The translations under genes were made by a program, and so were the position numbers. This document shows, piece after piece, positions 2,720-62,722 of a stretch of 64,000 bases of DNA; position 1 is the first letter of the stretch; each line of letters begins with the position of its first letter. The DNA lies in assembly GCF_006345805.1 (NCBI RefSeq), contig NW_021836317.1, positions 3,290 through 67,289 on the forward strand, read 5' to 3'. The DNA is from Octopus sinensis (lineage: Eukaryota). The notes beneath the pieces are model-generated. The model saw nothing but the letters and a program-made list of their open reading frames with translations. It ran no database searches and was not told where the DNA came from.

Positions 2720-3075
2720 ATAATAATAAATATTAGGGAATAAAACCAAATTTACAGGGAAAAAAATCAGATTTAGGATTAAATCCAATTTTATAGTAAA
2801 ATATTATATAATATTAATTAGAGACAAAACCACTATTTTGCAAAACAAACAAGGAAAGACTTAATCAATACATAAAATTTTAATAAAAAGTAAAAAAAGT
2901 AAAAAAAAGTAAAAAAAAAACGCCACTACAATTGTTTCATGTCTTGATCGACAATCTTCAGGTGGATTTCCGATTTTTCAAGTCAGTTTCAAATTTTATT
3001 AAAATTTTATGTATTGATTAAGTCTTTCCTTGTTTGTTTTGCAAAATAGTGGTTTTGTCTCTAATTAATATTATA
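2720..3075 (-). mobile_element. PLE-like fold-back element in (TA)n with hammerhead
   Basis: Inverted arms about 2805-2888 and 2994-3075 (aattagagacaaaaccactattttgcaaaacaaacaaggaaagacttaatcaatacataaaatttt and its reverse complement). Unpaired tail 2720-2804, hammerhead in the spacer, (TA)n on both sides. Confidence 0.75.
2923..2965 (-). ncRNA. Minimal type I hammerhead ribozyme, core intact
   Basis: Minus strand reads CCAC-CUGAAGA-UUGUC-GAUCAA-GACAU-GAAA-C-AAUU-GUA-GUGG. Stem I is CCAC/GUGG, stem II is UGUC/GACA, stem III is the palindrome ACAAUUGU, and the cleavage triplet is GUA. Confidence 0.8.
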
Positions 3076-3148
3076 TTATATATATATATATATATATATA
3101 TATATATTATATATATATATATATATATATATATATATATATATATAT

Positions 3149-3437
3149 AAATAAATGAAGGAATGGAGTTGAACGACGATTTAACAAAATTCCTTTATTC
3201 TCGACATATGTTTCGAAGACTGCATATTGTCGAGAATAAAGGAATCTTGTTAATTCGTCGTTCAACTCCATTCTTTCATTTATTTGTATTAAAAAAAAAC
3301 ACACACATTTCCACACGAAAGCACGTGATCTCTGCCCTTGGCATGTAGCTTCAACCGTTGTTTTTCTGACGTGAATTTGCTACCCGGGTATCGGTTAACC
3401 GAATTATCCAAACTAGGATAATTCATTCAACTACTTA
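3149..3437 (+). mobile_element. PLE-like fold-back element in (TA)n with hammerhead 3' half
   Basis: 58-bp inverted arms 3149-3206 and 3228-3285, then a 150-bp tail ending at (TA)n. The reverse complement of 3198-3214 reads GAAA-CAUAUG-UC-GAGAA (stem III plus GUC site). Confidence 0.65.
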
Positions 3438-3519
3438 TAATATATATATATATATATATATACGTCGATTCCGAAGATACGTAGGTCTTTCTAAATATCA
3501 AATAAATATATATTTAAAT

Positions 3520-4108
3520 TTTGCCCACAAGGGCCTAAACATATAGGGGACAAACAAGAACGAAAGAAAGGATTAAGTCGATAACACCGAATCCTGTGCG
3601 GCGTAACAGTTATTTATTTAATCGACCACGACAGGATGAAATCCAAATTCGACCTCGTCGGAATTTCAACTCAGAACTTAGCGGCAGACGAAATAGAGCT
3701 AAGTATTTCGCCCGGTGTGCTAACGATTCTTATATCTTTATTGGCCACAAGGGGCTAAACATAGAGGGGACAAACAAGGACGACAAATGGATTAAGTTCA
3801 TTACATCGACCCCAGTGCGTACTGGTATTACGACCCCGAAAGGATGAAAGCCAAAGTCGACCTCGGCGGAACTTGAACTCAGAACGTAGCGGCAGAAGAA
3901 ATACCTATTTATTTACTGCCCACAAGGGGCTAGACATAGAGGGGACAAACAAGGACAGACAAACGGATTAAGTCGATTATATCGACTACAGTGCGTAACT
4001 GGTACTTATTTTAATCGACCCCGAAAGGATAAAAGACAAGGTTGACCTCGGCAGACGAAATACCGCTGAATATTTCGCCCGGCGTGCTAACGTTTCTGCC
4101 AGCTCGCG
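3520..4108 (-). mobile_element. SINE family B multimer (dimer plus adjacent copy)
   Basis: Three cccacaaggggctaaacatagaggggacaaacaagg-type tail blocks. Head at about 4060-4108 and junction gaaatacc|tattt at about 3905. Confidence 0.9.
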
Positions 4109-4519
4109 GTGTACATTAAATAAACATTAAATACAGTGTGAATTTACGTCGCCTGGCAAAACAGCAATAATGTTCATACCATACTGTTCTATTAGCTTCG
4201 GGTTATATCGATTGGTTACGTTCACCTTTGTGTCCGGGATATAAATTTAAAAAGCCATAGAAATATTTCATCTGTATAGCATATCAAAATTAATGTTAAA
4301 ATACACTATGCATCATAAATAATTAAAATTCATTTAAAAACAAAGTCATTAAGAGTTACAGATTAACGGTAATACAAATCGGAAGAAGTGTACTTGCTCG
4401 AATGTTTTCTCATAGGTGGCATTCGTGCTCCTGTCGCGAGCTTTTCAAAAGTGCTCCGTCGACAGTGCTGTAGAATTTTATACAACTGTTTTTGTGATTG
4501 ACATTTTAGCTTCATGGCT

Positions 4520-5030
4520 ACGGAGAAGAAACCAAGTGAAAGGGATATGCGGGAAGCCGTATTGTTGGAAGATGAAATTGGATATGATAAAACGATATGA
4601 AAAGGGCGAAAAGATGGTGGCCATTGCACGATCTTTTGGGATGAGCCGTACGACTGTTTCAACGATTGTGCACAATAGGGATGAGATTATGGCACCTGTG
4701 AAAGATGATTCTCCTGGAATGACAAACACCGTCATCAACAAGAAAAGGGGCGAATCTACGAAGATATTAGCAGCTTCTTGCCCTTTGTGTTGAAAGGCAG
4801 AATGGTAAGCAAGCATTTGTAGTCAGGGAATAATTCAGGAGAAACCGTTGTCTTTGTTTTAAACATTTGAGAAAGAAATATCCGGATGTCAAAGGCGTAG
4901 AAGGTTAAGCAAGTCAGGGATGGTTTATGAGGGTTAATTAGCCGCAGAATTCGTACTCTCTCAAAAAACAGGGTGTAAGCGCATTAGTTGAGAATGTTGC
5001 TGTAGCAGAATTCTTACCACATATCAGGAC
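4520..5030 (+). pseudogene. Tigger/pogo-type transposase remnant (CENP-B N-terminal HTH)
   Basis: MKLDMIKRYEKGEKMVAIARSFGMSRTTVSTIV is a typical psq/CENP-B HTH. Downstream IIQEKPLSLF and ASQGWF match second-HTH motifs. Frameshifts and stops are present. Confidence 0.8.
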
Positions 5031-5787
5031 TGCGCCTATATGCTCATTCTTTCCTCCAGAAATATAATTTCCTATCACAGCATTTTCACACTTCCGAACA
5101 AAGCATATTTGTAGTACTATCATATCTTTTGATAAAATTCTTAAAGCCGTTTTATTAAGATGTTTTATTTCCAAAATAATAAAAATAGTACGCCCTGAAA
5201 GATGCACACATTTTGAAGAACCTTCAGTTTTTCATTAGTATTAACACAGCACAAACCTTAACCAAATCCTTACTTCATTGTGTTTCGAGAAATATTCGTT
5301 GAGAGCCCTAAAATTTCGCATGATTTGCATTTCAATTCTCGAATATAATTTGTATTTTGTGGATAAAGAAAAAATTGTGGTTGAATGGGTGATTCATCTT
5401 CTGACGATTTTGGTGACAAATTCGAAAATCGATCATATCTCATTTCTGCGTCAATGATTTTTACTTACATGTCACGCAATTTTCTGCTTTAAAACGTTTA
5501 TTTCTTTAGCAACATTTCACACATAATACCGAATTAACAATCTTGACATCAAGCAAAATATACGGCTTTCTGAACGGAGTAGTGTTCTCTAAGTCTATAA
5601 GCAGAAACATCAACGCTTTCATCGATACATATGCATATATATACACATATATACTTACATTCACACACATGTCTTGTATGTATATATACATATATATATA
5701 TATATTATATATATATATATATATATATATAATATATATATATATATATATATATATATATATATATATATATAAGATTATATTTAT

Positions 5788-61235: not shown

Positions 61236-61697
61236 CTATCTATCTATCTATCTATCTATCTATCTATCTATCTATCTATCTATCTATCGATACTATCTAT
61301 CTATCTATCTATATACTATCTATCTCTATCTCTCTATCTATCTATCTTATCTCTCTATCTATCTATCTATCTATCTATCTATATATCTATCTATCTATCT
61401 ATATATCTATCTATTATCTATCTGTCCATCCATCTATCTATCTATCTATCTATCTATCTATCTATCTCTCATCTATCTATCTATCTATCTATCTATCTAT
61501 CTGTCATCCATCTATCTATCTATCTATCTATCTATCTATCTATCTATATATCTATCTATCTATCTATCTATCTATCTATCTATCTATCTATATAATCTAT
61601 CTATCTGTCCATCCATCCATCCATCTATCAATCTATATATCTATCTATCTATCTATCTATCTATCTATCTATCTATCTATCTATCTATCTATCTATA
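61236..61697. repeat. (TATC)n microsatellite, about 460 bp
   Basis: Direct reading. Confidence 0.95.
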
Positions 61698-62154
61698 TAA
61701 ACAGCGCGTGTGTGAGATAGCTCGCTTAGTAGATACATTAGATAGGTAGATAGATAGATGCATAGATATATAAATAGATACCAAAATATTTACATATACA
61801 TAGATGTAGTTCCTTAATTTTAAATTCTTCACCCTGGGCTTTAGATTTTTTGTTATCGGAACACAAACAGTTTTCCGTTTATTCTCTCAAATTCCCAACC
61901 AATTCCATATTCTTCTGCCGGGTACCAATACACCACTGTTTATTTTTTGCTGTTCATCTTAACCAGCTACAATTATTTCTCAGATTTCCTTATTTCTCAG
62001 AATTCAACAAGAATTCCATTTCCACTCTCCATATGTCCCTCTGTGTTTTATTTAGAGTCACAGCAAATAAATTATACGTAGTTCATTGGCCGATCCGGTC
62101 AAAAGCCATATTTATCTGACGAATTTTTTAGTCTTTATACAGAATCACAGCCAA

Positions 62155-62315
62155 GGAGGCGCAGTAGTTAGGGCAGTGGACTCGCGGTCGTAACAACGCG
62201 GTTTCGATTCCCAGACCGGGCATTGTGAGTGTTTATTGAGCAAAATCACCTAAGCTCTATGAGGATCCGTCGGGGTGTGTGGGTGAACCCTGCTGTACTC
62301 TTTCACGACAATTTT
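62155..62315 (+). mobile_element. OR-like SINE 5' part (tRNA-Arg-like head)
   Basis: ggaggcgc..gttagggcagtggactcgcggtc..ggtttcgattccc, with TCG at the anticodon-like position. Confidence 0.8.
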
Positions 62316-62348
62316 ATATATATATATATATATAATATATATATATAT

Positions 62349-62530
62349 ATGATAGATTGTTAGCCACTACACGCATTTTTTTCTCTCCCGTGTTCCTCTC
62401 TGTCGAAGAGCGTAGGCGTGAAACGTAAAAGACTTTTTCTATTCCTGAGCGTTATACTAATACATCTGTTTGTTTTGTACACCACCTGTCTTCGTCTTTT
62501 GTTTTCTTCGTAAAATCTCCCCCCCCCCCC
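62349..62530 (+). mobile_element. Short element D, copy 3
   Basis: atgatagattgttagccactacac...ctctgtcgaagagcgtaggcgtgaaacgtaaaagac...gtaaaatctccc then (TA)n. Confidence 0.7.
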
Positions 62531-62543
62531 TATATATATATAC

Positions 62544-62722
62544 TTTACAAGATAAGGGCAGAAGAAAAATTGTAATGCCAGATACGCCGGCGTATCTGGC
62601 ATTAGAATTTTTCTTCTGCCCTTATTTTGTAAATTATGTATAAATTTTACCTTTAAAAGCATTTTTTTATATGCTGGCCATTGATAAATATTTTTCCCGA
62701 AACAAATTTTATCCTATATCAT
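62544..62722 (+). mobile_element. PLE-like fold-back element: 90-bp loopless palindrome plus tail
   Basis: 62544-62633 is centred on gatacgcc|ggcgtatc with two mismatches. The tail runs to (TA)n. Confidence 0.7.

Follow-up and report, generated by a model that had tools for sequence, protein, structure and literature searches.

A 64,000-nt stretch of the Octopus sinensis genome (contig NW_021836317.1, positions 3,290 to 67,289; the window) contained eight fold-back inserts, E1 to E8, which are very probably 5′-truncated head-to-head double copies of retroelements set in TA repeats. Three of them (E1-E3) are termini of Penelope-like elements (PLEs) encoding a reverse transcriptase (RT) plus a GIY-YIG endonuclease (EN) with Hydra-clade motifs, and five (E4-E8) are termini of non-coding hammerhead units likely copied in trans by a Penelope-like enzyme. 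The overall plan is the known PLE insertion pattern, which the latter five inserts extend to non-coding hammerhead units with long tails. An earlier note on the window had assigned the inserts (listed there at 2720, 3149, 5788, 16853, 22287, 43430, 48361 and 62544, for E1 to E8 respectively) to PLEs or non-autonomous ribozyme retroelements. Both proved true, of different inserts. What moves animal retrozymes, and how the inverted ends and tails of PLEs arise, are open questions according to PMC7229834, 10.64898/2026.07.22.740005 and PMC8557442. In this genome, young Hydra elements with long open frames occurred side by side with five non-coding hammerhead families that bore the PLE insertion signature in full.

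The window is AT-rich and microsatellite-dense, and the host genome comprises 2.72 Gb. Local self-alignment of the window confirmed inverted arms at all eight sites (Table 1). When the host's own genome was searched with the DNA of E1 to E8, the first look gave 1239, 2500, 1719, 1196, 73, 804, 1866 and 1666 candidates, respectively, and each insert was a member of a multi-copy dispersed family. Forty candidates were scored per search. Counts were taken from the best 25-30 loci of each and from two further searches (E8, E3), and removal of 13 overlapping loci left 252. All eight inserts had a one-sided, unpaired tail. Tails were 85-100% identical among dispersed copies, with a fixed end point before (TA)n, and are thus part of the element and not of its flank. 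Element 3′ ends clustered at two sites per family, a distal (D) and a proximal (P) end site, whose spacing equals the tail length (about 77, 155, 79, 106, 90, 77, 96 and 93 nt in E1 to E8). After removal of 32 E3 rows that matched a TA/CA repeat inside the reference, 294/307 element ends followed by TA were located at D or P. Conversely, 294 of the 396 ends at D or P led into TA-rich sequence, against 8% of window positions. The plan of inverted arms, one-sided tail and TA flanks, which the earlier note had seen across several sequence families, was upheld. It had also described several tails as ending in ccct before (TA)n. A CCCT or CCT was indeed present 10-14 nt upstream of D in 7/8 families, usually following a predicted hairpin, though not in the E2 (3149) family. 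The motif also stood upstream of P in the five non-coding families. A role of CCCT and hairpin in recognition may be considered as a candidate.

Head-to-head pairs numbered 158 in the 252 loci. They comprised 123 D+P, 3 D+D and 2 P+P pairs, and 30 with an unclassified end, so that 123 of the 128 classifiable pairs joined unlike ends. D+P outnumbered like-with-like pairs in the non-coding families (64 vs 5) and in the autonomous ones (59 vs 0), and this was also so in the subsets from queries without the complete fold-back (28 vs 2). Each of E1-E8 consisted of one D copy and one P copy. The tail-less arm ended at P, 77-155 nt from D. Junction pairs were mostly distinct (35/36 in E8, for example) and the centres variable. 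Within the 123 D+P pairs the D copy reached more than 20 nt further 5′ in 35, the P copy did so in 33 (E2, E4 and E6 of the window among them), and the two lay within 20 nt of each other in 55. Long copies bearing an open reading frame (ORF) may end at P, the tail then standing on the short inverted copy (L249, L252).

Miniature inverted-repeat transposable elements (MITEs), or DNA transposons of the fold-back type that have terminal inverted repeats, could likewise leave long inverted arms in an AT-rich target. We reject this explanation as extremely improbable, in agreement with the earlier note. The ends were asymmetric, the arms were one sequence copied twice around variable centres with the tail on either arm, and many copies lacked a second arm. 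In addition, three families were linked to an RT, which excludes this origin for E1-E3, and the tandem hammerhead units speak against it for E4-E8. Variable tails, symmetric terminal inverted repeats and the lack of any coding link, which the earlier note had held to speak against its own reading, were not what we found. Such stumps can pass for MITEs or microRNA hairpins in annotation tools.

Penelope-like families at E1-E3

PLE coding sequence was not detected in the window by tblastn. As judged from dispersed copies, E1-E3 are the 3′ ends of autonomous Hydra-clade PLEs, whose termini bound an ORF for RT and GIY-YIG EN in other copies. Such a linkage, which the earlier note had proposed to look for, was present for E1-E3 and was not found for E4-E8. 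In family A (E1), an ATG followed the tail by about 45 nt in locus L181 and opened an ORF lying between two termini 5.68 kb apart, with the motifs DKT, GAPDS, YRDD, CxCx5C, YIG and CxH. An 859-aa open frame was present at L214. The 3′ untranslated region of family A measured about 3 kb and held internal direct repeats about 80% identical (L181:2500-4700). Family B (E2) termini bounded RT-EN ORFs in L234, L250 and L255, the 5′ terminus being inverted and the 3′ terminus in sense, and the family B tail continued into an ATG in L248 and L253. A sister subfamily, B′, had open frames of 899-923 aa and shared 39% identity with family A across the RT region. Family C (E3) termini bounded RT and EN in L348, with an RT 81% identical to that of family A.

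The motifs of a single ORF with RT and GIY-YIG EN were read in L181, L214, L250-L260 and L348, and the PLE call rests on these motifs and on 287 RT homologues. A Pfam scan of four ORF pieces returned no significant domain, and a PDB sequence search with an 800-aa protein returned nothing significant. Partial tandem arrangement (pseudo-long terminal repeat, pLTR), 5′ truncation and an inverted 5′ copy, all typical of PLEs, were observed in L181 (two termini), L234, L250 and L348.

Craig 2021 (PMC8557442) defined the Hydra clade by a C-terminal EN, DKT in place of DKG, an RWK motif, a CxCX5C linker, CxxC and CxH around E and N, absence of CCHH, a canonical hammerhead and a (TA)n target. Inverted 5′ copies, the targeting of (TA)n, a tail of 30-40 bp at one end or the other and the non-autonomous Chlamys were described in the same paper. 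The E1-E3 families shared with this clade the C-terminal GIY-YIG domain, the DKT (QSDKTRN in A and B′), an approximately kept RWK motif (RIKWK in A, RIRWL in B′; RW/KWK) and a divergent RT4. Family A had the CxCx5C linker (CTCRDKSKC) and a CxH (CRH), while B′ had CNLC, a CxH (CPH) and a linker with one Cys. CCHH appeared by eye to be absent. Canonical hammerheads near the 3′ end, the (TA)n target, the inverted 5′ copy and a tail at either end were likewise present. In contrast to the clade, which is described as "generally <3 kb", the elements found here were 3.7-5.7 kb long, with a long 3′ untranslated region and an Asn-rich linker. Their tails of 77-155 nt exceeded the 30-40 bp of the definition, and family B′ was without CxCx5C. 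Taken together, the motifs match the clade definition, and we assign the three families to Hydra by motif rather than by tree. Naiad PLEs, which have an N-terminal EN and no canonical hammerhead, were considered and rejected, since the EN was C-terminal and hammerheads were present.

PLE anatomy is already known and Hydra PLEs are already known from octopus; the three inserts represent new Hydra-type families. Hydra-1_Obim of Octopus bimaculoides (Craig 2021 supplement, PMC8557442) has a hammerhead that differs from those of the window families. At least five further Hydra-type families were present in the genome (L366-L385), several with open frames of 780-970 aa and with hammerheads and tails of their own. 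The copies of subfamily B′ (L251-L253, L258, L260) were young, and although their linker lacked CxCx5C they still ended in (TA)n, which speaks against the proposed targeting role of that linker. A repeat annotation of octopus from 2026 counted 31 PLE families with recent activity, and in its text as covered here neither hammerhead nor retrozyme is mentioned.

Hammerhead motifs and the non-coding units

The strict scan of the window matched a single complete type I hammerhead, oriented toward the E1 tail (Table 1), and its motif recurred in 13/29 family A loci. The earlier note had listed three surviving hammerheads as pointing to the tail. This was correct for the one at 2923 and, as a rule, at the level of the families. 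The other two were misread. At 3214-3199 (minus strand) and 43599-43612 (plus strand) there are hammerhead 3′ half-cores in the tail-less arms of E2 and E6, oriented away from the tail, and the minus-strand CTGAAGA near 43630, reported as a hammerhead at 43585, is a decayed antisense stretch of the E6 family. A full E2-family hammerhead was found in L250 and L229. Strict hammerheads occurred in 18/29, 10/13, 17/26, 5/24, 16/24, 15/23, 16/25 and 29/51 loci of the E1 to E8 families (a few from neighbouring elements), against 0/50 shuffled loci. Longer copies of all eight families had a complete hammerhead 5′ of the tail and in tail sense. Stem I covaried in pairs between families (for example CCAC/GTGG, TGAG/CTCA, TTGG/CCAG, TGCA/TGCA, GCCG/CGGT). 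Isolated hammerhead folds did not reach significant z-scores, and the motif call therefore rests on the pattern and the cross-family pairing. An Rfam scan of the window gave no hammerhead family among the 150 of 326 matches listed, all of which were sub-threshold hairpin matches. In the six families scored, the cleavage site was 191-288 nt 5′ of D; hence the hammerheads do not define the element ends.

The E4-E8 inserts are the ends of retrozyme-like non-coding tandem units of 446-609 bp with a type I hammerhead motif. Natural tandem copies gave periods of 609 (E4), 546 (E5), 441-446 (E6), 541 (E7) and 465-467 bp (E8), and E5 arrays had up to 5 tail ends. GC content was 0.32-0.37 and the longest ORF starting with ATG was 36-92 aa. 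The hammerheads had a stem I of 4-5 bp, a stem II region of 26-54 nt and a palindromic helix III. The units folded better than shuffles (z -2.2 to -5.8), which is at most suggestive with regard to circular RNA or self-cleavage. Tblastn with two Hydra proteins found no match in them. E4 and E5 were distantly related to each other and to the unit of L224 (65-75%). The latter, at L224:1-1700, is a tandem hammerhead unit of about 595 bp in at least three near-identical copies.

These units resemble the non-LTR retrozymes of Cervera 2020 (PMC7229834) and Li 2026 (10.64898/2026.07.22.740005), which likewise consist of short tandem units that are non-coding and low in GC, have a type I hammerhead motif each and coexist with PLEs. 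Units of 446-609 bp are above the 150-450 bp of PMC7229834 and within the 51-972 bp of 10.64898/2026.07.22.740005. Retrozymes of this kind are defined by a canonical hammerhead with loop 1-loop 2 contacts rather than by the minimal PLE type. The E4-E8 hammerheads combine a short stem I, a long stem II and a palindromic helix III, as in PLEs. Two fixed ends, an inverted arm and a (TA)n target are documented here for E4-E8. Both papers proposed PLEs as the mobilisers of retrozymes from co-occurrence and pLTR similarity and left the mechanism open. Our search of the literature, outside which lay subscription papers and Repbase, found no description of PLE-type inverted, tailed insertions of retrozyme units, or of such units in octopus. 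Paired hammerheads on opposite strands, 100-700 bp apart, were described in Cervera 2014.

It could also be that every one of the eight inserts is a stump of an autonomous PLE and that the short E4-E8 units are locally tandemised pLTRs of coding elements yet to be found. E1-E3 look identical to E4-E8 in the window and proved to be such stumps, only 23-51 loci per family were seen, and the origin of tandem units from pLTRs is discussed in Li 2026 (10.64898/2026.07.22.740005). Hydra RT or EN fragments also occurred within 7/147 unit loci. These lay clear of the unit and are separate neighbours; in four of the loci, TA repeats or other elements stood between the two. Moreover, the sequence beyond D was the same at independent loci. 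Where loci read through D (53/147), all 53 kept to the unit and were back at the hammerhead within 112-225 nt; they came to an end at D or P, at a truncation or where the locus stopped, and 0/53 entered an ORF. Arrays also terminated at P or D into fresh (TA)n, which argues that the unit itself was the template. We therefore consider this explanation improbable and retain that of non-coding units.

Since E4-E8 have the same two fixed ends as PLEs, they likely use a Penelope enzyme to move. Movement by a long interspersed element (LINE) or by rolling-circle DNA replication, with the PLE likeness due to convergence, seems very improbable. It would agree with the absence of any sequence link from the units to a PLE in our searches, and Cervera 2020 (PMC7229834) names LINEs or PLEs as candidates. 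However, the units had no poly(A) and no fixed simple-repeat 3′ end of their own, and in their two fixed ends and duplicated inverted arms they agreed in detail with the Hydra elements of this genome (64 D+P vs 5). L1-type twin priming yields non-overlapping halves and would not duplicate the arms. Thus the genomic pattern lends support to PLE mobilisation of retrozymes.

Two apparent links from units to coding elements were discarded: a similarity between E6 and family E (z 5.8) was a TA low-complexity match, and an E7 match in L380 was a separate insertion. The (TA)n flanks made target-site duplications of E4-E8 unreadable. Runs that we guess to be RNA contained E5 words and parts of E7 as contigs, which were not used as evidence.

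Origin of the double copies

We suggest that a PLE protein, probably a dimer, nicks both (TA)n strands, and that each free 3′ end would then prime reverse transcription at an internal site of the element RNA, one at D and one at P. Both cDNAs would usually stop early and be joined 5′ to 5′. The stretch from P to D, present once, would become the tail, while the arms would be the remainder, which is present twice and in opposite orientations. Partial arrays would result from unit RNA that is tandem or circular. Multimeric RNA is probably processed by the hammerhead, which need not act in insertion, since the ends lie about 190-290 nt from the cleavage site. The rule of one D plus one P end offers a specific test of this mechanism.

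An in vitro PLE system, Poseidon PAc (Frangieh 2024, PMC11167929), has several of these properties: both target strands are cut, a dimer is predicted, the hammerhead is dispensable for insertion, and the tail corresponds to the interval from one internal RT start site to the other. It shares with our elements a tail between two fixed internal starts, an AT-rich target and a hammerhead away from the ends. In that system 30-40 nt separate the two sites, which fall within the start of the ORF, whereas those found here were 77-155 nt apart and upstream of the ATG or in non-coding units. What is added here is a count of the pairing of both sites within single insertions. The Penelope elements of Adineta vaga have inverted pLTRs, and trans mobilisation and self-priming were discussed for them (Arkhipova 2013, PMC3846280). 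Both they and Chlamys such as MRC1 (PMC8557442) resemble the octopus elements in having an inverted pLTR to which a tail may be added, Asn-rich inserts and non-autonomous head-to-tail arrays, and their trans mobilisation through pLTR sequences is a likely further parallel. As a rule, their non-autonomous units are without hammerheads and match the 3′ end of an autonomous element, while no such match was found for E4-E8.

With the same classification of the inserts, the inverted arm could alternatively arise by self-priming, in which the cDNA snaps back, copies itself and stops at P (akin to the model in Arkhipova 2013, PMC3846280). D+P pairing follows naturally from it, and 55/123 pairs were near-symmetric, several of them centred on short palindromes. 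It requires a D copy reaching at least as far 5′ as the P copy, whereas the P copy reached more than 20 nt further in 33/123, including E2, E4 and E6 of the window, and whole ORFs can sit on the P copy. Longer P copies were about as frequent as longer D copies (33 vs 35), a balance that favours two cDNAs with separate priming over simple snap-back. A D-primed snap-back cDNA cannot yield pairs with a longer P copy, and two separate cDNAs, or a switch to a second RNA, would be simpler. Self-priming is unlikely as the general explanation, and it may account for part of the symmetric class.

Several points weigh against two-site priming and against the Penelope link of the units. Five of the ten DNA queries included the fold-back, which biases the counts toward D+P, and pairs were counted from the 40 candidates scored per search. 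Tolerance windows were wide for D (-6..+34) and P, because AT-rich ends blur the alignments. Junction microhomology was slight (mean 1.4 vs 0.8 nt; 30 of 100 asymmetric junctions clean, 70 unresolvable), and the 55 near-symmetric centres can also be explained by hairpin formation or later collapse. An autonomous partner of E4-E8 was not found: the units showed no similarity at the nucleotide level (E<1e-3/1e-4) with families A, B, B′, C or 20 further Hydra loci, a search that did not take in Naiad and Neptune, which also favour microsatellites. Stem II of E7 and E8 resembled that of one Hydra family only weakly (z 4.1, 42 comparisons). An empty site of E7 was sought in contigs of four runs, which stopped at the TA repeats and gave no join across the insert.

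Tentatively, the octopus genome may hold a radiation of PLE equivalents of short interspersed elements (SINEs), although we would not yet favour this over its negation. These would be small hammerhead units unrelated in sequence to their host enzyme. Their recognition would depend on two structural start sites (hairpin and CCCT at the distal one), and each insertion would be made from two separately primed cDNAs, one per site. If true, this would explain the PLE tail and inverted pLTR and settle the mobiliser of animal retrozymes.

Other features of the window

Table 1. Positions of the inserts and of the hammerhead motif in the window (1-based)
Feature	Position	Strand	Basis or remark
E1 arms	2807-2888/2994-3075	inverted	self-alignment, 82/82 matches
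E2 arms	3145-3210/3223-3289	inverted	self-alignment
E3 arms	5869-5990/6033-6160	inverted	self-alignment
E4 arms	16853-16880/16913-16941	inverted	self-alignment
E5 arms	22287-22316/22317-22346	inverted	self-alignment
E6 arms	43481-43584/43718-43820	inverted	self-alignment
E7 arms	48467-48541/48559-48633	inverted	self-alignment
E8 arms	62535-62587/62590-62642	inverted	self-alignment
E1 tail-bearing copy, Hydra-clade PLE family A, 3′ end with pLTR and 77-nt tail	2720..2974	-	92% to full-element terminus in L181, where the tail continues into the ORF
Complete type I hammerhead motif, CCAC-CTGAAGA-stem II-GAA-ACAATTGT-A^-GTGG	2923..2965 (2965-2923)	-	sole strict-scan match in window; oriented to E1 tail
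E1 tail-less inverted copy, ends at proximal fixed site	2994..3075	+	self-alignment, family alignment
E2 tail-less copy, Hydra family B terminus, with hammerhead 3′ half	3146..3228	-	90% to L250 terminus
E2 tail-bearing copy, Hydra family B, tail about 145-155 nt	3223..3433	+	dispersed copies, family alignment
E3 tail-bearing copy, Hydra family C terminus	5788..6031	-	94% to 3′ end of RT-EN element in L348
E3 tail-less inverted copy	6033..6160	+	self-alignment, family alignment
Ninth insert, E1 family (family A), internally collapsed	6765..6870		tail remnant 6827-6769 (-) and tail-less arm 6826-6870 (+)
E4 tail-less copy, 609-bp non-coding hammerhead-motif unit	16845..16907	-	family alignment
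E4 tail-bearing copy	16913..17045	+	family alignment
E5 tail-less copy, 546-bp non-coding hammerhead-motif unit, young	22287..22321	-	arrays of 3-5 units elsewhere
E5 tail-bearing copy	22312..22440	+	99% over 129 nt to five other loci
E6 tail-bearing copy, 441-446-bp non-coding hammerhead-motif unit, too short for hammerhead	43428..43593	-	family alignment
E6 tail-less copy, extends further 5′, with hammerhead 3′ half	43585..43811	+	alignment to family unit
E7 tail-bearing copy, 541-bp non-coding hammerhead-motif unit	48362..48558	-	family alignment
E7 tail-less inverted copy	48545..48633	+	self-alignment, family alignment
E8 tail-less copy, 465-467-bp non-coding hammerhead-motif unit	62541..62589	-	family alignment
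E8 tail-bearing copy	62588..62725	+	family alignment

The E2 element extended to 3433, beyond what its arms suggest. The ninth insert was absent from the earlier note. Elsewhere in the genome a single TA tract could hold stacked families (L310:1131-1789; L022; L025; L097), and (TA)n tracts thus appear to be repeated landing sites. Three other imperfect fold-backs of the window (38406-38574, 45612-45680 and 31499-31533) matched 0/8 of the families and 0/9 Hydra references. SINE clusters in both orientations, at 905-2125 and 3520-4110, gave rise to the longest inverted-repeat match in the window; we take these SINEs to resemble octopus SINEs. Two ORF fragments were also present. The one at 4416-4793 (plus strand) presumably resembles the helix-turn-helix of a Tigger/CENP-B-type transposase, and that at 28961-29350 (minus strand), we assume, the C-terminus of a CR1/L2-type LINE RT.

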